From Escherichia coli (GTDB lineage: Bacteria; Pseudomonadota; Gammaproteobacteria; Enterobacterales; Enterobacteriaceae): 64,000 nucleotides of DNA. The position numbers were made by a program, and so were the translations under genes. The stretch lies in NCBI RefSeq assembly GCF_003991155.1, contig NZ_CP031293.1; one strand, written 5' to 3'. The notes under the pieces are model-generated. The model was not told the DNA's origin, ran no database searches, and was given only the letters and a program-made list of their open reading frames with translations. Each line of letters starts with the position of its first letter. Positions within the stretch are counted from its first letter, which is position 1. This document shows, in pieces, positions 48,417-57,886 of this stretch.

Positions 48417-49223
48417 ATGAAATTTGTCTCTTTTAATATCAACGGCCTGCGCGCCAGACCTCACCAGCTTGAAGCCATCGTCGAAAAGCACCAGCCGGAT
48501 GTGATTGGCCTGCAGGAGACAAAAGTTCATGACGATATGTTTCCACTCGAAGAGGTGGCGAAGCTCGGCTACAACGTGTTTTATCACGGGCAGAAAGGCC
48601 ATTACGGCGTGGCATTGTTGACCAAAGAGACGCCGATTGCTGTGCGTCGCGGCTTCCCTGACGACGGCGAAGAGGCACAACGGCGAATTATTATGGCGGA
48701 AATCCCCTCGCCGCTGGGTAATGTCACCGTGATCAACGGTTACTTCCCACAGGGCGAAAGTCGCGACCATCCGATTAAATTCCCGGCGAAAGCGCAGTTT
48801 TATCAGAACCTGCAAAACTATCTCGAAACCGAACTTAAGCGTGAAAATCCGGTGCTGATTATGGGCGATATGAATATCAGTCCTGGCGACCTGGATATTG
48901 GCATTGGCGAAGAGAACCGTAAGCGCTGGCTGCGTACCGGAAAATGTTCTTTCCTTCCGGAGGAACGCGAATGGATGGAGAGACTGATGAGCTGGGGGTT
49001 GGTCGATACCTTCCGCCATGCGAATCCGCAAACAGCAGATCGTTTCTCATGGTTTGATTACCGCTCAAAAGGTTTTGACGATAACCGTGGTCTGCGCATC
49101 GACCTGCTGCTCGCCAGCCAACCGCTGGCAGAATGTTGCGTAGAAACCGGCATCGACTATGAAATCCGCAGCATGGAAAAACCGTCCGATCACGCGCCTG
49201 TGTGGGCGACCTTCCGCCGCTAA
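48417..49223 (+). CDS. xthA: exodeoxyribonuclease III
   Basis: 268 aa from [18 protein letters not shown]. Confidence 0.95.
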
Positions 49224-49389
49224 TTTAGCTGCTCTCCTGGCACAAACGGAGTCAGGAGAATTAACCTTGAGAAAAATCAACAAACTGTCAGTAATGATTT
49301 GTTGCCTGCCGTCCTTTGTTATACCGTCACAGCGTTTTTAGTTGTCTGACCACTTCTCTATTATCAAGTTTGATATAGGAAACTCCACG

Positions 49390-50100
49390 ATGAACGCTGA
49401 GCGTAAATTTCTTTTTGCCTGTCTTATTTTTGCGCTGGTCATTTACGCTATCCACGCTTTCGGTTTATTCGAGCTGCTCACCGATTTACCTCACTTACAG
49501 ACACTCATTCGCCAGAGCGGATTGTTCGGTTATAGCCTCTATATTCTGTTATTCATCATTGCCACCCTCTTTCTGTTGCCAGGAAGCATACTGGTGATCG
49601 CTGGAGGGATAGTTTTTGGCCCGCTCTTAGGGACACTACTATCATTAATTGCCGCCACGCTGGCCTCCTCGTGCTCATTCCTGCTGGCGCGCTGGCTGGG
49701 ACGTGATTTACTGCTGAAATACGTTGGTCATAGCCATACCTTTCAGTCCATTGAAAAAGGCATTGCGCGTAACGGTATTGATTTTCTTATTCTGACCCGC
49801 TTAATCCCGTTGTTTCCTTACAATATTCAAAATTACGCTTACGGATTAACCACAATCGCCTTCTGGCCTTATACCCTTATTTCGGCACTCACGACCCTGC
49901 CCGGTATTGTTATTTATACCGTGATGGCAAGCGATCTCGCCAATGAAGGCATTACGCTGCGCTTTATTTTACAACTCTGTCTGGCGGGCCTGGCGCTGTT
50001 TATTCTCGTCCAGCTCGCAAAACTCTACGCTCGACACAAACATGTGGATCTGTCTGCTTCTCGCCGCAGCCCACTTTCTCACCCAAAAAATGAAGGATAG
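49390..50100 (+). CDS. ydjX: DedA/TVP38-family inner-membrane protein
   Basis: 236 aa from MNAERKFLF; multiple TM segments. Confidence 0.8.
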   Translation: MNAERKFLFACLIFALVIYAIHAFGLFELLTDLPHLQTLIRQSGLFGYSLYILLFIIATLFLLPGSILVIAGGIVFGPLLGTLLSLIAATLASSCSFLLARWLGRDLLLKYVGHSHTFQSIEKGIARNGIDFLILTRLIPLFPYNIQNYAYGLTTIAFWPYTLISALTTLPGIVIYTVMASDLANEGITLRFILQLCLAGLALFILVQLAKLYARHKHVDLSASRRSPLSHPKNEG

Positions 50101-50104
50101 AACA

Positions 50105-50782
50105 ATGTTGCAACATTATTCAGTGTCATGGAAAAAAGGACTGACTGCACTCTGCTTACTGGCTGTTGCTGGGCTTAGCGGCTGCGATCAAAAAGAGAAT
50201 GCGGCGGCAAAAGTGGAATACGACGAACTTTCGAACAGCCAACCGCTGCGTGTCGATGCTAATAACCATACGGTAACCATGCTGGTGCAAATTAATGGTC
50301 GTTTCCTCACCGACGACACTCGTCACGGTATTGTGTTTAAAGATGGCTCCAACGGACATAAATCGCTGTTTATGGGTTATGCGACCCCGAAAGCATTTTA
50401 TGAAGCCCTGAAAGAGGCAGGTGGTACGCCGGGCGAAAACATGACGATGGATAATAAAGAAACGACTCATGTCACAGGCAGCAAACTGGATATTTCGGTC
50501 AACTGGCAAGGGGCGGCAAAAGCGTATTCCTTCGATGAAGTGATTGTTGACAGTAATGGCAAGAAACTGGACATGCGCTTTGGCGGTAATTTAACGGCAG
50601 CAGAAGAGAAGAAAACGGGTTGCCTGGTGTGTCTGGATAGCTGCCCGGTCGGCATCGTCAGCAATGCAACATACACTTATGGTGCGGTGGAAAAACGCGG
50701 CGAAGTGAAATTCAAAGGCAATGCCTCAGTTCTCCCGGCGGATAACACGCTGGCAACGGTTACCTTTAAAATCACCGAATAA
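50105..50782 (+). CDS. ydjY: lipoprotein with Cys-rich motif
   Basis: 225 aa from MLQHYSVSWKK; lipobox LSGC; CLVCLDSCP motif. Confidence 0.78.
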   Translation: MLQHYSVSWKKGLTALCLLAVAGLSGCDQKENAAAKVEYDELSNSQPLRVDANNHTVTMLVQINGRFLTDDTRHGIVFKDGSNGHKSLFMGYATPKAFYEALKEAGGTPGENMTMDNKETTHVTGSKLDISVNWQGAAKAYSFDEVIVDSNGKKLDMRFGGNLTAAEEKKTGCLVCLDSCPVGIVSNATYTYGAVEKRGEVKFKGNASVLPADNTLATVTFKITE

Positions 50783-50796
50783 AGCCAGGATAAAGG

Positions 50797-51504
50797 ATGA
50801 TGAAGATGCAATCGCGAAAAATCTGGTACTACCGTATAACCCTCATCATCCTGTTGTTCGCTATGCTGCTGGCATGGGCGCTGCTTCCCGGCGTCCATGA
50901 GTTTATCAATCGCAGCGTTGCGGCGTTTGCCGCCGTGGACCAACAGGGTATAGAACGCTTTATTCAGTCTTACGGCGCACTGGCGGCAGTTGTCTCGTTC
51001 TTGTTGATGATTTTACAGGCCATTGCTGCACCGCTACCTGCGTTTTTGATCACCTTTGCCAATGCGTCGCTGTTTGGCGCGTTCTGGGGGGGATTGCTGT
51101 CGTGGACCAGTTCGATGGCCGGCGCGGCGCTGTGCTTTTTTATCGCCAGAGTGATGGGCCGCGAAGTGGTGGAAAAATTAACCGGCAAAACCGTACTTGA
51201 CAGTATGGACGGCTTTTTCACTCGCTACGGCAAACACACCATCCTGGTATGTCGGTTATTGCCTTTTGTGCCTTTTGATCCCGTAAGCTATGCTGCCGGT
51301 TTGACTTCAATACGTTTTCGCTCGTTTTTTATCGCCACCGGGCTTGGTCAGTTACCGGCGACTATTGTTTATTCTTGGGCGGGCAGCATGTTAACAGGCG
51401 GTACCTTCTGGTTTGTCACCGGACTGTTTATTCTGTTTGCCCTGACCGTGGTGATTTTTATGGCGAAGAAAATATGGCTTGAGCGCCAGAAGAGGAATGC
51501 CTGA
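50797..51504 (+). CDS. ydjZ: DedA/TVP38-family inner-membrane protein (paralogue of ydjX)
   Basis: 235-aa polytopic ORF. Confidence 0.82.
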   Translation: MMKMQSRKIWYYRITLIILLFAMLLAWALLPGVHEFINRSVAAFAAVDQQGIERFIQSYGALAAVVSFLLMILQAIAAPLPAFLITFANASLFGAFWGGLLSWTSSMAGAALCFFIARVMGREVVEKLTGKTVLDSMDGFFTRYGKHTILVCRLLPFVPFDPVSYAAGLTSIRFRSFFIATGLGQLPATIVYSWAGSMLTGGTFWFVTGLFILFALTVVIFMAKKIWLERQKRNA

Positions 51505-52052
51505 TGGGTTTACCGCCGCTTAGCAAAATTCCTTTCATTTTACGTCCGCAGGCGTGGCTGCATCGTCGCCATTACGGCGAGGTGCTAAGCCCGATTCGCT
51601 GGTGGGGGCGGATCCCGTTTATCTTTTATCTGGTGTCGATGTTTGTCGGCTGGCTGGAGCGCAAACGCTCACCGCTCGATCCGGTAGTGCGATCGCTTGT
51701 CAGCGCGCGCATTGCGCAAATGTGCCTGTGTGAGTTTTGCGTGGATATCACCAGTATGAAAGTCGCCGAGCGTACCGGCAGCACCGATAAACTGCTGGCA
51801 GTGGCTGACTGGCGGCAAAGCCCGCTCTTTAGCGATGAAGAACGGCTGGCGCTGGAGTACGCCGAAGCCGCAAGCGTCACACCGCCAACGGTCGATGATG
51901 CCCTGCGTACCCGACTGGCTACCCATTTTGACGCTCAGGCACTCACCGAACTGACGGCATTGATCGGCCTGCAAAACCTGTCAGCCCGTTTTAATTCTGC
52001 CATGGACATTCCCGCTCAGGGGCTGTGCCGTATTCCTGACAAACGTTCTTAA
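51504..52052 (+). CDS. ynjA: AhpD/carboxymuconolactone-decarboxylase-like protein with CxxC
   Basis: 182-aa ORF; start overlaps the ydjZ stop; CLCEFC motif. Confidence 0.8.
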   Translation: MGLPPLSKIPFILRPQAWLHRRHYGEVLSPIRWWGRIPFIFYLVSMFVGWLERKRSPLDPVVRSLVSARIAQMCLCEFCVDITSMKVAERTGSTDKLLAVADWRQSPLFSDEERLALEYAEAASVTPPTVDDALRTRLATHFDAQALTELTALIGLQNLSARFNSAMDIPAQGLCRIPDKRS

Positions 52053-52058
52053 GGAGAG

Positions 52059-53228
52059 ATGATGCGCCATTGTGTATGGTTGCTGGGATTGTTATCGCTG
52101 TTTTCTTTGGCAACACATGCCAGTGACTGGCAGGAAATTAAAAATGAGGCCAAAGGGCAAACCGTCTGGTTTAACGCCTGGGGCGGCGATACCGCAATTA
52201 ACCGCTATCTCGACTGGGTTAGCGGCGAGATGAAAACCCATTACGCTATAAACCTGAAGATTGTTCGTCTCGCGGATGCCGCAGACGCGGTGAAGCGCAT
52301 TCAGACCGAAGCTGCTGCCGGGCGCAAAACAGGCGGTTCGGTGGATCTGCTCTGGGTGAACGGCGAAAACTTCCGCACCTTAAAAGAGGCTAATTTACTG
52401 CAAACTGACTGGGCGGAGACCCTGCCCAACTGGCGCTATGTCGACACACAGCTGCCGGTGCGGGAAGATTTTTCAGTGCCTACAGAAGGGGCAGAATCAC
52501 CCTGGGGCGGCGCGCAATTGACGTTTATCGCCCGCCGCGATGTTACGCCACAGCCACCACAAACGCCGCAAGCCTTACTGGAGTTTGCTAAAGCCAATCC
52601 CGGCACGGTTACCTATCCGCGCCCACCGGACTTTACCGGCACGGCGTTTCTTGAACAGTTGCTGATTATGCTGACGCCCGATCCCGCAGCATTAAAAGAA
52701 GCGCCGGACGATGCAACTTTCGCCCGTGTCACTGCTCCCTTGTGGCAATATCTTGATGCGCTACATCCGTATTTGTGGCGCGAAGGAAAGGATTTCCCGC
52801 CTTCGCCCGCGCGGATGGATGCTCTGCTGAAAGCCGGCACATTGCGCCTGTCGCTGACCTTTAACCCCGCGCATGCGCAGCAAAAAATCGCCAGCGGCGA
52901 TTTACCCGCCAGCAGTTACAGTTTTGGCTTTCGCGAGGGGATGATTGGCAACGTGCATTTCGTCACCATTCCTGCCAACGCGAATGCCAGTGCTGCGGCG
53001 AAGGTAGTTGCCAATTTCCTGCTCTCACCCGATGCGCAACTGCGTAAAGCAGATCCCACTGTCTGGGGCGATCCTTCTGTTCTCGATCCGCAAAAACTGC
53101 CTGACGGGCAGCGCGAAACATTGCAATCGAGAATGCCGCAGGATCTGCCGCCGGTACTGGCTGAACCGCACGCAGGTTGGGTAAATGCGCTGGAACAAGA
53201 ATGGCTACACCGTTACGGTACGCATTAA
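52059..53228 (+). CDS. ynjB: ABC transporter periplasmic substrate-binding protein
   Basis: 389-aa ORF with signal peptide (start could be the second ATG at 52062). Confidence 0.82.
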   Translation: MMRHCVWLLGLLSLFSLATHASDWQEIKNEAKGQTVWFNAWGGDTAINRYLDWVSGEMKTHYAINLKIVRLADAADAVKRIQTEAAAGRKTGGSVDLLWVNGENFRTLKEANLLQTDWAETLPNWRYVDTQLPVREDFSVPTEGAESPWGGAQLTFIARRDVTPQPPQTPQALLEFAKANPGTVTYPRPPDFTGTAFLEQLLIMLTPDPAALKEAPDDATFARVTAPLWQYLDALHPYLWREGKDFPPSPARMDALLKAGTLRLSLTFNPAHAQQKIASGDLPASSYSFGFREGMIGNVHFVTIPANANASAAAKVVANFLLSPDAQLRKADPTVWGDPSVLDPQKLPDGQRETLQSRMPQDLPPVLAEPHAGWVNALEQEWLHRYGTH

Positions 53229-54736
53229 TCTTTTTGCTGTGGGCGATGGTGGCGGTGATTTATGCACCGCTGATCCCGGCAACTCTCACGCTGATATCGC
53301 CTGCTTTATCGTTGACACACTGGCAGGCGTTATTTGCCGATCCACAGTTACCGCAGGCATTACTGGCAACGCTGGTGTCGACAACCATCGCGGCGGTCGG
53401 GGCGTTGTTGATTGCCCTGCTGGTGATTGTGGCGCTGTGGCCTGGGCCGAAATGGCAGCGTATGTGCGCCCGTCTGCCGTGGCTGCTCGCCATTCCCCAT
53501 GTGGCTTTTGCCACCAGCACCCTTCTGCTCTTTGCTGACGGAGGGCTGCTTTATGACTATTTCCCATATTTCACTCCGCCAATGGACAAATTGGGTATTG
53601 GGCTGGGCTTCACGCTGGCGGTGAAAGAAAGCGCATTTCTATTGTGGATCTTAGCGGCAGTATTGAGCGAAAAACGGCTGTTGCAGCAACTCATTGTGCT
53701 GGATTCGCTGGGCTACAGCCGCTGGCAATGCCTGAACTGGCTGCTGTTGCCCTCCGTCGCGCCTGCGCTGGCAATGGCGATGCTGGCGATTGTGGCCTGG
53801 TCGCTGTCGGTCGTGGATGTGGCGATTATTCTTGGGCCAGGTAATCCCCCGACGCTGGCAGTAATTAGCTGGCAGTGGTTAACTCAGGGCGACGCCGATC
53901 AACAAACGAAAGGCGCACTCGCCAGCCTGCTGCTGATGCTGTTACTCGCCGCCTACGTTTTGCTGGACTATCTGCTATGGCGTGGCTGGCGGCGTACTAT
54001 TCCCCGCGTAGATGGCGTTCGTAAGCCTGCCACGCCTTTATTGCCAGGCAATACGCTGGCGAGTTTTTTACCCTTAACCGGTGTGCTGTGTGTGGTTCTG
54101 CTGGCGATCCTCGCGGATCAGTCGACGATCAATAGTGAAGCGCTCATCAACAGCCTGACAATGGGGCCGGTGGCGACATTCATCGCTTTGCTCCTGTTAC
54201 TGCTGTGGCTGGAATGGGGGCCACAGCGTCGCCAATTGTGGCTATGGTTGCCTATTTTATTACCCGCTCTGCCGCTGGTGGCGGGCCAGTACACGCTGGC
54301 GCTATGGCTGAACCTGGATGGAAGCTGGACGGCGGTGGTCTGGGGGCATCTGCTGTGGGTAATGCCGTGGATGCTGTTTATCCTGCAACCCGCCTGGCAG
54401 CGCATTGATTCACGGTTAATTTTGATTGCGCAAACACTGGGCTGGTCGCGGGCCAAAATCTTCTTTTACGTAAAATGCCCACTCATGTTGCGCCCTGCGT
54501 TGATTGCCTTCGCGGTGGGATTTTCAGTCAGTATTGCGCAGTATATGCCGACGCTGTGGCTGGGCGCGGGGCGTTTTCCGACGCTCACCACTGAAGCGGT
54601 GGCATTAAGCAGCGGCGGCAGCAACGGCATTCTCGCCGCCCAGGCTTTATGGCAACTACTGTTGCCGCTTATTATTTTTGCCCTGACCGCGTTAGTCGCA
54701 AAATGGGTAGGTTATGTCAGACAAGGACTCCGCTAA
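53201..54736 (+). CDS. ynjC: ABC transporter permease, fused double transmembrane domain
   Basis: 511 aa from ATG at 53201; 5' end overlaps the ynjB 3' end. Confidence 0.8.
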   Translation: MATPLRYALIFLLWAMVAVIYAPLIPATLTLISPALSLTHWQALFADPQLPQALLATLVSTTIAAVGALLIALLVIVALWPGPKWQRMCARLPWLLAIPHVAFATSTLLLFADGGLLYDYFPYFTPPMDKLGIGLGFTLAVKESAFLLWILAAVLSEKRLLQQLIVLDSLGYSRWQCLNWLLLPSVAPALAMAMLAIVAWSLSVVDVAIILGPGNPPTLAVISWQWLTQGDADQQTKGALASLLLMLLLAAYVLLDYLLWRGWRRTIPRVDGVRKPATPLLPGNTLASFLPLTGVLCVVLLAILADQSTINSEALINSLTMGPVATFIALLLLLLWLEWGPQRRQLWLWLPILLPALPLVAGQYTLALWLNLDGSWTAVVWGHLLWVMPWMLFILQPAWQRIDSRLILIAQTLGWSRAKIFFYVKCPLMLRPALIAFAVGFSVSIAQYMPTLWLGAGRFPTLTTEAVALSSGGSNGILAAQALWQLLLPLIIFALTALVAKWVGYVRQGLR

Positions 54737-55389
54737 TGCTCTGCGTGAAAAATGTTTCGCTACGTTTACCAGAAAGCCGCTTGCTGACAAACGTTAACTT
54801 TACGGTGGATAAAGGTGACATTGTCACGTTAATGGGGCCGTCTGGCTGTGGAAAATCTACACTGTTTTCATGGATGATTGGTGCGCTGGCCGGACAGTTT
54901 TCTTGTACAGGTGAGCTATGGCTCAATGAGCAACGGATTGACATGCTACCCACCGCACAGCGTCAGATTGGCATTCTTTTCCAGGATGCACTGTTATTTG
55001 ACCAATTCAGCGTCGGGCAAAATTTACTGCTGGCTCTGCCAGCGGCACTCAAAGGTGTTGCAAGGCGCGATGCGGTAAATGATGCGCTGGAGCGTGCGGG
55101 GCTTGGCGGTATGTTCCATCAGGATCCTGCCACTTTGTCTGGCGGTCAGCGAGCGCGCGTTGCTCTAGTACGCGCCCTTCTCGCTCAGCCAAAAGCGTTG
55201 CTACTGGATGAGCCATTCAGCCGTCTTGATGTAGCTCTGCGCGATAATTTTCGCCAGTGGGTGTTCAGCGAAGTTCGCGCCCAGGCGATCCCAGTCGTTC
55301 AGGTAACGCACGATCTCCAGGATGTTCCTGCTGATAGCCCCGTTCTGGATATGGCGCAGTGGTCAGAAAATTACAACAAACTGCGATAA
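54736..55389 (+). CDS. ynjD: ABC transporter ATP-binding protein
   Basis: 217 aa with Walker A GPSGCGKST and signature LSGGQRAR; start overlaps the ynjC stop. Confidence 0.85.
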   Translation: MLCVKNVSLRLPESRLLTNVNFTVDKGDIVTLMGPSGCGKSTLFSWMIGALAGQFSCTGELWLNEQRIDMLPTAQRQIGILFQDALLFDQFSVGQNLLLALPAALKGVARRDAVNDALERAGLGGMFHQDPATLSGGQRARVALVRALLAQPKALLLDEPFSRLDVALRDNFRQWVFSEVRAQAIPVVQVTHDLQDVPADSPVLDMAQWSENYNKLR

Positions 55390-55455
55390 CGCAAAGTTTT
55401 TCTCAATGCGTCAGTTCAGAATGGCGCTCTCAAAAATACAATGTCGGGATTTTCG

Positions 55456-56763
55456 ATGAAACGTGTTTCTCAAATGACCGCGCTGGCAATGGCTTTAGGG
55501 CTGGCTTGCGCTTCTTCGTGGGCCGCTGAACTGGCGAAGCCTCTTACACTTGACCAGCTTCAACAACAAAATGGCAAAGCGATTGATACTCGCCCCAGCG
55601 CGTTTTATAACGGCTGGCCACAAACCTTAAATGGCCCTTCCGGTCATGAACCTGCCGCCTTAAACCTCTCTGCTAGCTGGCTCGACAAAATGAGCACCGA
55701 ACAGCTCAACGAGTGGATCAAGCAACATAACCTGAAAGCCGATGCCCCGGTGGCGCTGTACGGTAATGACAAAGATGTCGATGCCGTCAAAACGCGTCTG
55801 CAAAAAGCAGGTTTTACGCATATCTCCATCCTGAGTGACGCGCTAAGCGAACCTTCCCGTCTGCAAAAACTGCCGCACTTTGAGCAGCTGGTTTATCCGC
55901 AATGGCTGCATGACCTGCAACAAGGTAAAGAGGTTACGGCGAAACCTGCCGGTGACTGGAAAGTCATTGAAGCGGCCTGGGGCGCTCCTAAGCTTTACCT
56001 TATCAGCCATATTCCCGGCGCTGACTACATCGACACCAACGAAGTGGAAAGCGAACCGCTGTGGAACAAAGTTTCTGATGAACAACTGAAAGCGATGCTG
56101 GCAAAACACGGCATTCGCCATGACACCACGGTCATTCTGTACGGGCGTGACGTATACGCTGCAGCGCGTGTGGCGCAAATTATGCTTTATGCCGGCGTGA
56201 AAGATGTGCGCCTGCTGGACGGAGGCTGGCAAACCTGGTCCGACGCGGGTCTGCCCGTTGAGCGCGGTACGCCACCGAAAGTGAAAGCGGAACCGGATTT
56301 CGGCGTGAAGATCCCGGCACAACCGCAACTGATGCTTGATATGGAACAAGCGCGTGGACTGCTGCATCGCCAGGATGCATCGCTGGTGAGTATTCGTTCG
56401 TGGCCGGAGTTTATCGGTACGACCAGTGGTTACAGCTATATTAAACCAAAAGGTGAAATAGCCGGAGCACGTTGGGGACACGCTGGTAGCGACTCGACGC
56501 ATATGGAAGATTTCCATAACCCGGATGGCACCATGCGTAGCGCCGATGATATTACCGCTATGTGGAAAGCATGGAATATCAAGCCAGATCAGCAAGTTTC
56601 ATTCTACTGCGGCACCGGCTGGCGCGCGTCCGAAACCTTTATGTACGCACGCGCAATGGGCTGGAATAACGTCTCCGTTTACGACGGCGGCTGGTACGAA
56701 TGGAGCAGCGATCCAAAAAATCCGGTAGCAACCGGTGAACGCGGCCCGGACAGCAGCAAATAA
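55456..56763 (+). CDS. ynjE: periplasmic multi-domain rhodanese (sulfurtransferase)
   Basis: 435 aa from MKRVSQMTAL with signal peptide; rhodanese active-site loop YCGTGWR. Confidence 0.88.
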   Translation: MKRVSQMTALAMALGLACASSWAAELAKPLTLDQLQQQNGKAIDTRPSAFYNGWPQTLNGPSGHEPAALNLSASWLDKMSTEQLNEWIKQHNLKADAPVALYGNDKDVDAVKTRLQKAGFTHISILSDALSEPSRLQKLPHFEQLVYPQWLHDLQQGKEVTAKPAGDWKVIEAAWGAPKLYLISHIPGADYIDTNEVESEPLWNKVSDEQLKAMLAKHGIRHDTTVILYGRDVYAAARVAQIMLYAGVKDVRLLDGGWQTWSDAGLPVERGTPPKVKAEPDFGVKIPAQPQLMLDMEQARGLLHRQDASLVSIRSWPEFIGTTSGYSYIKPKGEIAGARWGHAGSDSTHMEDFHNPDGTMRSADDITAMWKAWNIKPDQQVSFYCGTGWRASETFMYARAMGWNNVSVYDGGWYEWSSDPKNPVATGERGPDSSK

Positions 56764-56771
56764 CATTGCAA

Positions 56772-57398
56772 TTACTGACGCTGGAGCGACTTCAGCGTCA
56801 GATACCCACTCCACACCCGCGTAAAGGTCGTCATCCAGCACAACGCACCAAATACCCACGCAAACCACGGAAAACAGGCCGGAAAGAGGCAACTCAGAAC
56901 AAACAGCAAAATCGTCTCGCTGCCTTCGGTTAACCCGCCCAGATAATAAAACGATTTATGCGCATAACCAGGATTATCAATCTGATGTTTCGCCGCCAGC
57001 GCAGCAAAAGCGAGAAAACTGCTGCCCGTGCCGATAAACGCAAACAGCAGCCAGCCGCCTGCCAGCGCATTTTGCTCCGGTGCAGCAAGAATAAAACCAA
57101 ACGGCACCAGCGCGTAAAAGAGAAAATCGAGAGAAATATCGAGAAAGCCGCCCGCGTCGGTAAGCCCTCTGCGCCGCGCCAGCGCACCGTCCAGACCATC
57201 AAGCAGCCTGTTCAACAAAATGGCGACTAGCGCCGCCAGATACCAGCCCAGCGCCAGAAAAGGCAGTGCCAGCACGCCGATGGCAAATCCCACTAATGTT
57301 AAACCATCTGGCGTAATGCCCGGTTTATCAAGAACCCGCACGCACTGATGCAACAACGGTTTAATCCGGGGATGAAGATGGCGGTCTAGCACAGGCAC
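56772..57398 (-). CDS. ynjF: CDP-alcohol phosphatidyltransferase-family membrane protein
   Basis: 208-aa ORF with CDP-OH P-transferase-like motif (DGLDGALAR). Confidence 0.8.
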   Translation of the reverse strand: MPVLDRHLHPRIKPLLHQCVRVLDKPGITPDGLTLVGFAIGVLALPFLALGWYLAALVAILLNRLLDGLDGALARRRGLTDAGGFLDISLDFLFYALVPFGFILAAPEQNALAGGWLLFAFIGTGSSFLAFAALAAKHQIDNPGYAHKSFYYLGGLTEGSETILLFVLSCLFPACFPWFAWVFGALCWMTTFTRVWSGYLTLKSLQRQ

Positions 57399-57478
57399 TC
57401 CTTAAATATAAAGCCTTTCTGATTGAGCAACAGTGCGGATATTATGGCATTTTTCGCTTATCTGCCCGTGTGTAATTT

Positions 57479-57886
57479 ATGAAAATGATTGAAGTTGTTG
57501 CCGCCATCATCGAACGTGATGGCAAAATTTTACTCGCGCAACGCCCCGCCCATAGCGATCAGGCGGGATTATGGGAGTTTGCCGGTGGTAAAGTCGAGCC
57601 GGATGAAAACCAGCGGCAGGCGCTGGTGCGTGAGTTACGCGAAGAACTGGGCATCGAAGCAGCTGTGGGTGAATATGTTGCCAGCCATCAGCGAGAAGTT
57701 TCGGGGCGGATTATCCATCTTCATGCCTGGCACGTACCCGACTTCCACGGGACGTTACAGGCACATGAACATCAGGCGCTGGTCTGGTGCTCACCTGAAG
57801 AGGCGCTGCAATATCCGCTGGCCCCTGCTGACATTCCACTATTAGAGGCATTTATGGCTTTACGCGCCGCCAGACCAGCGGATTAG
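57479..57886 (+). CDS. nudG: Nudix hydrolase (CTP/dCTP pyrophosphohydrolase)
   Basis: 135-aa ORF with Nudix box GGKVEPDENQRQALVRELREELGIE. Confidence 0.9.
   Translation: MKMIEVVAAIIERDGKILLAQRPAHSDQAGLWEFAGGKVEPDENQRQALVRELREELGIEAAVGEYVASHQREVSGRIIHLHAWHVPDFHGTLQAHEHQALVWCSPEEALQYPLAPADIPLLEAFMALRAARPAD

Follow-up and report, generated by a model that had tools for sequence, protein, structure and literature searches.

The ydjXYZ-ynjABCD, ynjE and ynjF genes of Escherichia coli: a probable nine-gene envelope system with a tentative role in anaerobic relay of selenium or sulfane sulfur

The genes ydjX, ydjY, ydjZ, ynjA, ynjB, ynjC, ynjD, ynjE and ynjF of Escherichia coli were analysed in a stretch of 64,000 nucleotides of contig NZ_CP031293.1 (RefSeq assembly GCF_003991155.1); this whole stretch is called the window. 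On the comparative sequence evidence given below, the nine genes very probably make up one functional system. Gene coordinates were taken from the RefSeq annotation and converted to window positions (Table 1). Positions 49000-57500 are E. coli chromosome, with 100% identity to several complete genomes, and of 5426 complete E. coli genomes, 5383 contain the region at ≥80% coverage. Read from the sequence, the gap between ydjX and ydjY is 4 nt and that between ydjY and ydjZ 14 nt. The genes ydjZ and ynjA overlap by 1 nt (TGATG), ynjA and ynjB are separated by 9 nt, ynjB and ynjC overlap by 28 nt, ynjC and ynjD overlap by 1 nt (TAATG), and 66 nt lie between ynjD and ynjE. Such tight junctions are ordinary for an operon and are not unusual in themselves. 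All the junctions and motifs quoted in an earlier reading, made from the letters of the window without database searches (the sequence-only reading), were found again in the sequence, and its family assignments agree with RefSeq names and with profile and structure-sequence matches. The GC content is 46-49% in ydjX-ydjY and 56-59% in ynjBC. Horizontal acquisition of ydjY was considered on the basis of this composition and rejected, as the contrast comes without a clear island signature. One database entry of 451 aa (P0242, E. coli-like) is a YdjX::YdjY read-through fusion; its most likely origin is not a natural fusion but a frameshift or misassembly within the 4-nt ydjX/ydjY gap.

The ydjXYZ-ynjABCD genes were described as one operon directly activated by FNR, with an FNR chromatin immunoprecipitation (ChIP) peak, expression that depends on FNR and a binding site at -60.5, and ynjE as a separate unit, also directly FNR-activated, with a site at -41.5 (Myers 2013). 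The co-transcription from ydjX to ynjD that had been proposed from the sequence alone is borne out by these data; the inclusion of ynjE in the same operon is not, ynjE having its own FNR-dependent promoter. The E. coli version of the system is made of three transcription units: the ydjX-ynjD operon, ynjE and the convergent ynjF. Membership of the ydjX operon in the FNR regulon is seen in the published ChIP and RNA-seq data (Myers 2013) and in the sequence itself, in which the box TTGAGAAAAATCAA upstream of ydjX is the best match in the xthA-ydjX intergenic region. Upstream of ynjE the best match to an FNR box reached 6 of the 10 specified positions, and the published -41.5 site was not recognisable in the sequence. 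A second near-consensus FNR-type sequence, TTGATATGGAACAA, with one mismatch, lies inside the ynjE coding region. The window contains 48 FNR-type matches with two mismatches or fewer, vs 35 in shuffled sequence, and this one may be due to chance. A perfect 8-bp inverted repeat (TGACGCTG...CAGCGTCA) is located at the convergent ynjE/ynjF junction, within the 3' end of ynjF, and may form a bidirectional terminator hairpin. A search of positions 48900-57700 with Rfam at E ≤ 1 for riboswitches (thiamine pyrophosphate (TPP), molybdenum cofactor (Moco) or S-adenosylmethionine (SAM)) returned two chance-level matches only.

Table 1. Genes and other sequence features of the ydj/ynj region (window positions).
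Feature	Position	Strand	Description
FNR box	49267-49280		upstream of ydjX; 9 of 10 specified consensus positions
ydjX	49390-50100	+	DedA/VTT membrane protein, subfamily COG0398 ('YdjX type'); RefSeq TVP38/TMEM64 family
ydjY	50105-50782	+	exported lipoprotein, TGC-x2-C-x3-C motif
ydjZ	50797-51504	+	DedA/VTT membrane protein, subfamily COG0398 ('YdjZ type'); RefSeq TVP38/TMEM64 family
ynjA	51504-52052	+	AhpD-like (CMD family) protein
ynjB	52062-53228	+	periplasmic substrate-binding protein
ynjC	53201-54736	+	fused double ABC permease, 511 aa
ynjD	54736-55389	+	ABC ATPase
sigma-70-like promoter	55415-55442	+	TTCAGA-16-TACAAT, upstream of ynjE; found by consensus scan only
ynjE	55456-56763	+	periplasmic three-domain rhodanese
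FNR-type sequence	56336-56349		inside ynjE coding region
ynjF	56772-57392	-	CDP-alcohol phosphatidyltransferase, convergent with ynjE
inverted repeat	56777-56801		ynjE/ynjF junction; candidate terminator hairpin
nudG/ynjH overlap	57852-57886		3' ends of nudG (+) and ynjH (-)
selD	61740-62783	-	selenide, water dikinase (RefSeq); adjoins topB; membership in the system not shown

To compare gene neighbourhoods, open reading frames (ORFs) were clustered around ydjY at 81 loci from 47 taxa, and neighbours were counted within 9-10 kb. A DedA gene was found near ydjY in 43 of these taxa; for the 46 taxa of the genome scan, counted within 9 kb, the number is likewise 43. Fer4/CCG (HdrD-like) proteins were found in 17, a YnjB-like binding protein with permeases and ATPase in 11 (29-37% identity to YnjB), a rhodanese in 10, a YnjF-like CDP-alcohol phosphatidyltransferase in eight, TIGR04282/TIGR04283 transferases in eight and an ArsS radical-SAM enzyme in five; LPG_synthase_TM flippase-like genes and family 2 glycosyltransferase (GT2) genes also occur in the clusters. 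The genes recur as a conserved set across phyla. The core of the system consists of YdjY and a YdjZ-type DedA protein of subfamily COG0398, to which a second, YdjX-type DedA is usually added. Almost the entire E. coli set is present, in compact form and in a distant organism, at locus L095 of a metagenome-assembled genome (MAG). One strand of this locus carries a YdjZ-type DedA gene (58% identity to YdjZ) adjoining a rhodanese::YdjY gene, then a small membrane protein, a YdjX-type DedA (35% identity to YdjX), a YedF-like protein and a DUF3343 'Se_S_carrier'; the convergent strand carries a CCG protein, a YnjF-like protein (27%), a YnjB-like protein (37%), two permeases and an ATPase (39%).

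Gene fusions were also recorded. At least four proteins are YdjY::rhodanese fusions with different domain orders (Pfam Rhodanese at E = 2e-10 in P0276 and precomputed for P0270), one (P0310) is a DedA::YdjY fusion, and in Desulfobacterota DedA proteins carry fused Fer4/CCG, HdrD-like domains. Most of the rhodaneses adjoining ydjY possess a signal or lipoprotein peptide. The fusions and the exported neighbouring rhodaneses argue that YnjE is functionally tied to YdjY and that the chemistry takes place outside the membrane.

The boundary of the system drawn by the sequence-only reading stopped at ynjE and has to be moved, since the neighbours in other taxa and the overlaps seen in enteric bacteria indicate that ynjF belongs to the system too. 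YnjF contains the CDP-alcohol phosphatidyltransferase motif (DGx2ARx7-8Gx3Dx3D), in the form DGx2ARx7Gx3Dx3D, as DGLDGALARRRGLTDAGGFLDISLD, and a hydropathy scan gave five hydrophobic segments. PF01066 is precomputed for its orthologues, in agreement with membership of this family. The best NCBIfam matches were archaetidylinositol-phosphate synthase (61 bits, cut-off 180) and PIP synthase, and no equivalog was reached. YnjF-like genes with the same NCBIfam profile are those of the eight taxa counted above, mostly right beside a ynjB-like gene. In Salmonella-type and Kluyvera loci (L093, 7593-14935; L094, 7659-17517) the gene order is xthA-DedA-DedA-ynjB-ynjC-ynjD-ynjE, with no ydjY, and the ynjA-like CMD gene, relocated to the minus strand, shares an overlap with the start of ynjF. 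This overlap links ynjA to ynjF and so places ynjF within the system; the absence of ydjY from the same cluster indicates that ydjY is optional among enterics and that ynjA travels with ynjF. The genes themselves are known and annotated. Compared with the literature searched, the boundary, the core, the fusions and the linkage to selenium genes are new; no paper assigning a function to the operon or to ynjF, or a substrate to the operon, was found there, in agreement with the sequence-only reading.

YdjY has a lipobox (LSGC) and a CLVCLDSCP motif. It matched a single NCBIfam family, NF040466 'YdjY domain' (146 bits, cut-off 50), and the installed Pfam library yielded nothing significant for it, although all YdjY homologues found have a precomputed PF27149 (YdjY) assignment. 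Residues C173, C176, C180, R73 and H74 are invariant across 42 homologues, and the protein is exported in all homologues examined. The family amounts to 392 representative clusters among 1.84 billion proteins. In a scan of one genome per species, relatives were present in 124 of 100,044 species, belonging to Escherichia, Citrobacter, many Firmicutes, Desulfobacterota, Campylobacterota and one spirochaete; distant anaerobes carry homologues at 50-60% identity. YdjY is without a characterised structural relative and its fold is unrelated to ferredoxins. The label of 4Fe-4S ferredoxin that it bears in some sources was rejected: Fer4 Pfam matches were at E ≥ 0.09, three cysteines only are conserved (CxxCxxxCP) and not four (CxxCxxCxxxCP), and the signal is of the Sec lipoprotein type without a twin arginine. 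Replacement of one of the cysteines by selenocysteine was likewise rejected, with no in-frame TGA in the motif at 80 loci.

YdjX and YdjZ are paralogues (27% identity, E = 1e-17). In agreement with membership of the COG0398 DedA/VTT proteins, PF09335 is precomputed both for the orthologues from the Salmonella-type and Kluyvera loci and for partner proteins of other phyla. In published work YdjZ serves as the E. coli example of COG0398, and YdjX groups with YdjZ. According to published work, COG0398 proteins are without the residues of undecaprenyl phosphate (UndP) flippases (the acidic/basic tips of the re-entrant helices) and resemble eukaryotic scramblases, and their commonest fusion partner is a pyridine-nucleotide disulfide oxidoreductase. 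A function of YdjX/YdjZ as UndP flippases of the UptA type (COG0586) was rejected: the UptA UndP-transporter model gave 27 bits (YdjX) and 35 bits for a cut-off of 250, and the published COG0398 residues and complementation results are contrary, the cell-division defect of yqjA yghB being complemented by neither YdjX nor YdjZ. The likeness of COG0398 to the eukaryotic TMEM41B/VMP1 phospholipid scramblases lies in scramblase-like residues. The published account of COG0398 ties the subfamily to aerobic metabolism, whereas here the operon is FNR-activated and the relatives occur in anaerobes. By eye, YdjZ is closely similar to the C-terminal half of the 390-aa DedA proteins of Firmicutes. These Firmicute proteins (380-400 aa; e.g. 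L007, 10946-12118) have four extra N-terminal helices. Small four-helix membrane proteins of 126-154 aa are encoded 3' of ydjY in Campylobacterota and Desulfobacterota (L002, 10649-11029; L004, 10666-11130; L010, 10656-11051), and the extra helices may be their fused equivalent. Neither the small proteins nor the extra helices have a counterpart in E. coli.

YnjA has a CEFC sequence (C76-x2-C79) which is part of a longer conserved motif, CxCxFC(V/I)D, and a C-terminal QGLC. It matches solved structures of the CMD/AhpD family to E = 1e-9, and Pfam CMD is precomputed for its orthologues; both agree with placement in this family. Its best NCBIfam match is 'YciW-related (seleno)protein' (101 bits, under the cut-off).

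Against the YnjE structures 3ipo and 2wlr, YnjE gives E values no higher than 1e-285 and differs at few residues. It has a signal peptide and an FYCGTGWR loop, which is the CxxGxR loop of the rhodanese superfamily. RefSeq names it thiosulfate sulfurtransferase (EC 2.8.1.1). The efficient transfer that this name implies is not found in published data, which describe a periplasmic protein without apparent thiosulfate:glutathione activity, poor with thiosulfate or 3-mercaptopyruvate and of unclear physiological substrate. The next-closest solved relative is a 460-residue 'Sulfurtransferase' (6ktv, 6kvw, 6h98), aligned over residues 33-427 at E = 1e-88. The FYCGTGWR loop and an SGYxYIK segment are common to both proteins; in the DAYHME segment YnjE has Thr where the other has Tyr. 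This relative is presumably EanB, which synthesises ergothioneine anaerobically in Chlorobium limicola; in that case one member of the YnjE subfamily makes a C-S bond on imidazole from polysulfide. YnjE is exported and no EanA-like methyltransferase gene lies nearby, whereas the EanB type is presumably cytoplasmic and paired with EanA.

A different role for YnjE, in molybdenum-cofactor biosynthesis, is said to go back to Dahl et al. 2011 in J Biol Chem. YnjE would then pass sulfur to MoaD via MoeB and would be a mere neighbour of an unrelated transporter operon, the two being controlled by FNR because molybdoenzymes are anaerobic. Its separate FNR promoter fits this explanation, as does the designation of ynjE as molybdopterin synthase sulfurtransferase, for which earlier biochemistry is cited (Myers 2013). 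However, YnjE is a periplasmic protein whose signal peptide is cleavable, while MoeB and MoaD are cytoplasmic, and rhodaneses of the YnjE type or other exported ones stand beside YdjY or are fused to it in distant phyla. This recurrence argues that YnjE belongs to the ydj/ynj system, and an independent role in cofactor synthesis appears extremely unlikely as the explanation of the locus.

YnjBCD is a type I ATP-binding cassette (ABC) importer with a class II binding protein; the binding protein, two permease domains and the ATPase motifs are all present. YnjB falls into an NCBIfam subfamily of its own (PRK11622, 563 bits) and matches Pfam SBP_bac_8 (E = 8e-15). YnjC is matched by the PhnU2 model in two stretches and is split into two genes in Firmicutes. 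YnjD has a Walker A motif GPSGCGKS, an LSGGQ signature and a Walker B motif LLLDEP; 185 ABC ATPase families match it, the nearest NCBIfam models being PhnT2 and ThiQ, both under the cut-off. The solved relatives nearest to YnjB by profile and fold are PhnS, PotD/PotF, FbpA and ThiB (12-18% identity), and its fold neighbours, with TM-scores of 0.6-0.75, bind 2-aminoethylphosphonate, polyamines, iron, thiamine, sugar phosphates or GABA. PotABCD, PhnSTUV and ThiBPQ (class II / cluster D) have the same architecture and are the nearest relatives in sequence and fold. YnjBCD is distinguished from them by this low identity, by equivalog scores far under the cut-offs and by the lack of a TPP riboswitch. 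Among the invariant positions of YnjB, Trp, Phe, Tyr, Asp, Glu and Asn are abundant, a composition that would favour an amine-type ligand. No Sbp, CysP or ModA was found among its PDB profile matches or its top 50 Foldseek matches. The ligand class is narrowed in that YnjB does not appear to bind oxyanions in the manner of Sbp or ModA. The proposal of the sequence-only reading that YnjB serves a sulfur or selenium importer was followed up by this structure comparison and finds no backing there, YnjB being unlike a binder of sulfur or selenium oxyanions.

Database names suggest yet another account, in which YnjBCD imports thiamine or sulfate/thiosulfate, YnjE assimilates the imported thiosulfate and the rest of the cluster is incidental. 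The RefSeq name of YnjE and the JGI name of YnjB ('putative thiamine transport system substrate-binding protein') point this way, as do the score of YnjD against ThiQ, the weak matches of YnjC to CysT and ModB, and the presence of ThiB among the structural neighbours of YnjB. Taken as a ThiBPQ thiamine transporter, the importer was rejected: ThiQ scored 134 bits for a cut-off of 245, and ThiB (2qry) was matched at E = 0.24 by profile and at 15% identity by fold. A sulfate/thiosulfate (CysPUWA, Sbp) or molybdate (ModABC) importer was rejected as well, with 24-29 bits for CysT and ModB and cut-offs of 180-246. All of these NCBIfam scores are far under the cut-offs; positions 48900-57700 contain neither a TPP nor another riboswitch, Sbp, CysP and ModA are missing from the top YnjB matches, and the published activity of YnjE with thiosulfate, described above, is contrary. 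The conservation of the entire gene set across phyla further argues against incidental neighbours. This account was judged highly improbable.

Tentatively, and with a confidence somewhat short of even, we favour a function under anaerobic conditions in which selenium or sulfane sulfur is relayed across the envelope, possibly via a lipid-linked carrier. A reduced chalcogen would be carried across the inner membrane, selenium being its most likely identity and sulfane sulfur the alternative. In the periplasm, YnjE and YdjY would hold the atom on cysteines as a persulfide, a perselenide or a (seleno)trisulfide, and the YdjX/YdjZ pair would move it across the membrane. The carrier, if there is one, could be built by YnjF, which would use an amine-type compound taken up through YnjBCD; of the proposed steps this is the weakest. 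At the inner face the cysteine-rich YnjA would release the chalcogen by thiol chemistry for SelD or other users, and in other phyla Fer4/CCG reductase domains, sometimes fused to DedA, or C_GCAxxG_C_C proteins would take the place of YnjA. That the system performs a cysteine-based sulfur/selenium relay of some kind comes close to an even call. The involvement of a lipid-linked intermediate is on the doubtful side, and selenium specifically as the cargo is distinctly doubtful. The part played by YnjBCD and YnjF is the least clear.

Selenium genes are found among the neighbours of ydjY. A SelD gene above the NCBIfam cut-off lies directly after ydjY in L028 (a Syntrophaceae MAG) and close to it in four more lineages (L083, L084, L087 and Facklamia). 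YedF (TIGR03527), DUF3343 and an SclA-like desulfurase are also encoded near ydjY, and at least one of these four is present in nine of the 47 taxa. YedE, YedF and DUF3343 have been predicted to be selenium-related by published comparative genomics. Like the proteins studied here, YedE/YedF and YeeE/YeeD (TsuA/TsuB) combine a membrane translocator with small cysteine carriers for reactive sulfur or selenium, and YedF and DUF3343 stand inside some ydjY clusters. The families are unrelated, however: in the ydj/ynj system the translocator is a pair of COG0398 DedA proteins and the outer partner a three-cysteine lipoprotein of novel fold, and its ABC importer and phosphatidyltransferase have no counterpart there. 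YeeE/YeeD function in thiosulfate uptake. The selenium requirement of the formate dehydrogenases is mainly anaerobic, with which induction by FNR fits. E. coli possesses an uncharacterised 'specific' selenite route, and selenium transporters of high affinity are not known, according to a review of 2022. A DedA protein of Cupriavidus metallidurans CH34 is a membrane protein genetically linked to selenite uptake and resistance (Ledgham et al. 2005); a YdjY, rhodanese or ABC partner is not described for it, and its phenotype concerns toxic selenite under aerobic conditions. Selenium is favoured by the SelD/YedF/DUF3343 neighbours, this DedA-selenite link, the 'specific' route of E. coli, the lack of a known high-affinity transporter and FNR control.

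Several points weigh against selenium relay. The selenium-gene neighbours occur in only nine of the 47 taxa, and seven of the nine are Desulfobacterota, which implies few independent events. The neighbour families include selenoproteins (ArsS, C_GCAxxG_C_C, 'diclust_near_Sec'), some of them marked '(seleno)protein' by NCBI, and in Facklamia SelB and probable selenoprotein genes are present there as well; the proximity of SelD could therefore reflect 'selenium islands' and not selenium supply. A minimal ydjY-DedA module is found in Gemella, Finegoldia and other taxa, which may or may not use selenium. In E. coli the sequence-only reading had invoked selD, about 5 kb beyond ynjE. The distance is correct (4.3 kb from ynjF), but selD is on the opposite strand and the five genes ynjF, nudG, ynjH, gdhA and topB lie between it and ynjE, and this proximity alone proves nothing. 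The literature searched held no phenotype, ligand or biochemical activity tying these genes to selenium. YnjB resembles binders of amines, phosphonates and iron rather than of chalcogens, and YnjE has been assigned to molybdenum-cofactor biosynthesis (Myers 2013) and is a poor sulfurtransferase in vitro. The YdjY-DedA pairing is not absolute either: in L097 (9001-9987), from an apparent spore-former with SpoVR and Germane nearby, a rhodanese::YdjY lipoprotein is encoded with no DedA within 9 kb. The sulfur/selenium idea of the sequence-only reading is partly supported: it draws independent though circumstantial support from the YdjY-rhodanese fusions, the exported rhodaneses and the selenium genes of nine taxa, finds none in YnjB, and is still a hypothesis.

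Many clusters, moreover, carry ArsS with TIGR04282/TIGR04283, called 'arsenosugar biosynthesis' by NCBI, which points away from a chalcogen relay and towards an arsenic or sugar-lipid pathway. The three cysteines of YdjY could be a site for As(III) or organoarsenicals; the DedA pair and the associated enzymes would form an arsenosugar/arsenolipid pathway, reduced to a remnant in E. coli. In Campylobacter concisus and Facklamia the operon that contains ydjY and two DedA genes also encodes an ArsS (TIGR04167) with a score over the cut-off, and the 'arsenosugar biosynthesis glycosyltransferase' genes TIGR04282/TIGR04283 are those of the eight taxa mentioned above. A nucleoside hydrolase and an APH-type kinase would fit a route from a 5'-deoxyadenosyl adduct to a sugar-1-phosphate, and three cysteines are a typical As(III) ligand set. 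ArsS, TIGR04282 and TIGR04283 occur in operons that also contain ydjY and DedA genes in Campylobacter, Facklamia, Syntrophus and Catonella. E. coli, by contrast, is without these genes and has YnjF and YnjA instead, and it and the other YnjF-type clusters are without ArsS, the kinase and the glycosyltransferases. No ArsM, ArsR or ArsB was seen in the neighbourhoods read; ArsS is itself labelled '(seleno)protein' by NCBI; and FNR control and near-universal presence in E. coli better fit a housekeeping anaerobic role. An arsenic pathway was considered very improbable.

One such cluster is a 'selenium island' of Facklamia lactis (L079, 1026-16844). It comprises a TIGR04282-kinase fusion, TIGR04283, ArsS, a nucleoside hydrolase, two DedA genes, a small membrane protein and ydjY, together with a rhodanese, SelD, a YedF-like protein, SelB, a CcdA/DsbD-like protein and a ResA-like thioredoxin. 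A PrdB-like ORF of the same island ends at 155 aa, possibly at a selenocysteine codon.

The lipid-related components, the DedA proteins and YnjF, were left out of account by the sequence-only reading. YnjF and the set made of the kinase, TIGR04282 and TIGR04283 could each attach an imported or synthesised small molecule to a lipid, and flippase-like genes recur in the clusters, which makes a lipid-linked intermediate plausible. The scramblase likeness of COG0398, the GT2 genes, the OlsE-like fusion and the colistin effect of ynjC described below also count in favour of such a lipid link. Lipids could also be the purpose of the system. YnjBCD would then import a head group of the amino alcohol or polyol type, from which YnjF would make a minor phospholipid with CDP-diacylglycerol; YdjX/YdjZ would scramble this lipid to the outer leaflet and YdjY, YnjE and YnjA would modify or maintain it, as an anaerobic remodelling of the membrane in which chalcogen transport has no part. 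In other taxa the kinase, TIGR04282 and the GT2 protein TIGR04283 would do the equivalent job. Besides the phosphatidyltransferase, the scramblase-like DedA proteins and the LPG_synthase_TM flippase-like genes of the clusters, such remodelling would account for the aromatic and acidic invariant residues of YnjB and its amine- or phosphonate-binding relatives. The published effects of ynjC are in line with it: the mutation P213S gives a strong fitness gain under colistin, and deletion of the gene reduces uptake of a cationic dye. An OlsE-like FA_hydroxylase domain (PF04116) is N-terminally fused to a divergent YdjY domain with the motif SGCIVCLESCPGG in P0359, encoded on a 4.1-kb contig of JGI metagenome 3300041965. 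YnjF-like genes and TIGR04282/3, found in eight taxa each, never occur together (0 of 16 taxa), but this exclusion is not significant (Fisher p = 0.32). Remodelling leaves the three cysteines of YdjY, the rhodanese fusions, the Fer4/CCG-DedA fusions and the SelD/YedF/DUF3343 neighbours without explanation. The minimal and commonest module, ydjY with DedA, contains no lipid-synthesis gene, and no YnjF-dependent lipid is reported in the literature searched. Lipid remodelling as the purpose was judged unlikely. The motif variant of P0359 is shared by P0374 and P0310, and these proteins seemingly represent a second YdjY subfamily.

A more specific form of the selenium relay would make the YdjY-DedA(COG0398) core with YnjE the missing dedicated bacterial route of selenium acquisition, and the 'specific' pathway of E. 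coli, operating through a flipped lipid-linked carrier. The carrier would be made by YnjF, or elsewhere by the kinase/TIGR04282/TIGR04283 set, and the cargo would pass to YnjA or to the Fer4/CCG reductases and then to SelD. We regard this form as quite unlikely. If true, it would give COG0398 DedA proteins their first substrate-level function and would represent a new mode of trace-element uptake. Specific acquisition of selenium at trace levels can be tested with existing E. coli K-12 (Keio) deletion strains. The same applies to transport by COG0398, the second-largest DedA subfamily and the closest to human TMEM41B and VMP1, to the roles of YnjE, of the orphan YnjF and of the orphan YnjBCD, and to the reason why a ynjC mutation helps under colistin. 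If selenium is wrong, the nine-gene boundary and the YdjY-DedA-rhodanese linkage still stand as annotation.

Some further neighbours of ydjY were noted. In Finegoldia magna (L023, 5197-7780) a methylcobalamin methyltransferase of the MtaA/CmuA type and a corrinoid reductive-activase gene are located just upstream of ydjY, and in a Bacillota MAG (L012, 11343-14640) RACo, URO-D and B12-binding genes are near it. These corrinoid neighbours might point to a methyl transfer with a thiol, a selenol or a metalloid as donor or acceptor. On metagenome contig L010 (2433-9803) a two-component system together with a molybdopterin oxidoreductase of the Psr/Phs type (subunits Molybdopterin, NrfD, Fer4_11) lies divergently upstream of a ydjY-small membrane protein-DedA arrangement, which is also present in Sulfurospirillum diekertiae (L040). 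In the E. coli window, past ynjF, the convergent genes nudG and ynjH overlap at their 3' ends by about 35 nt.

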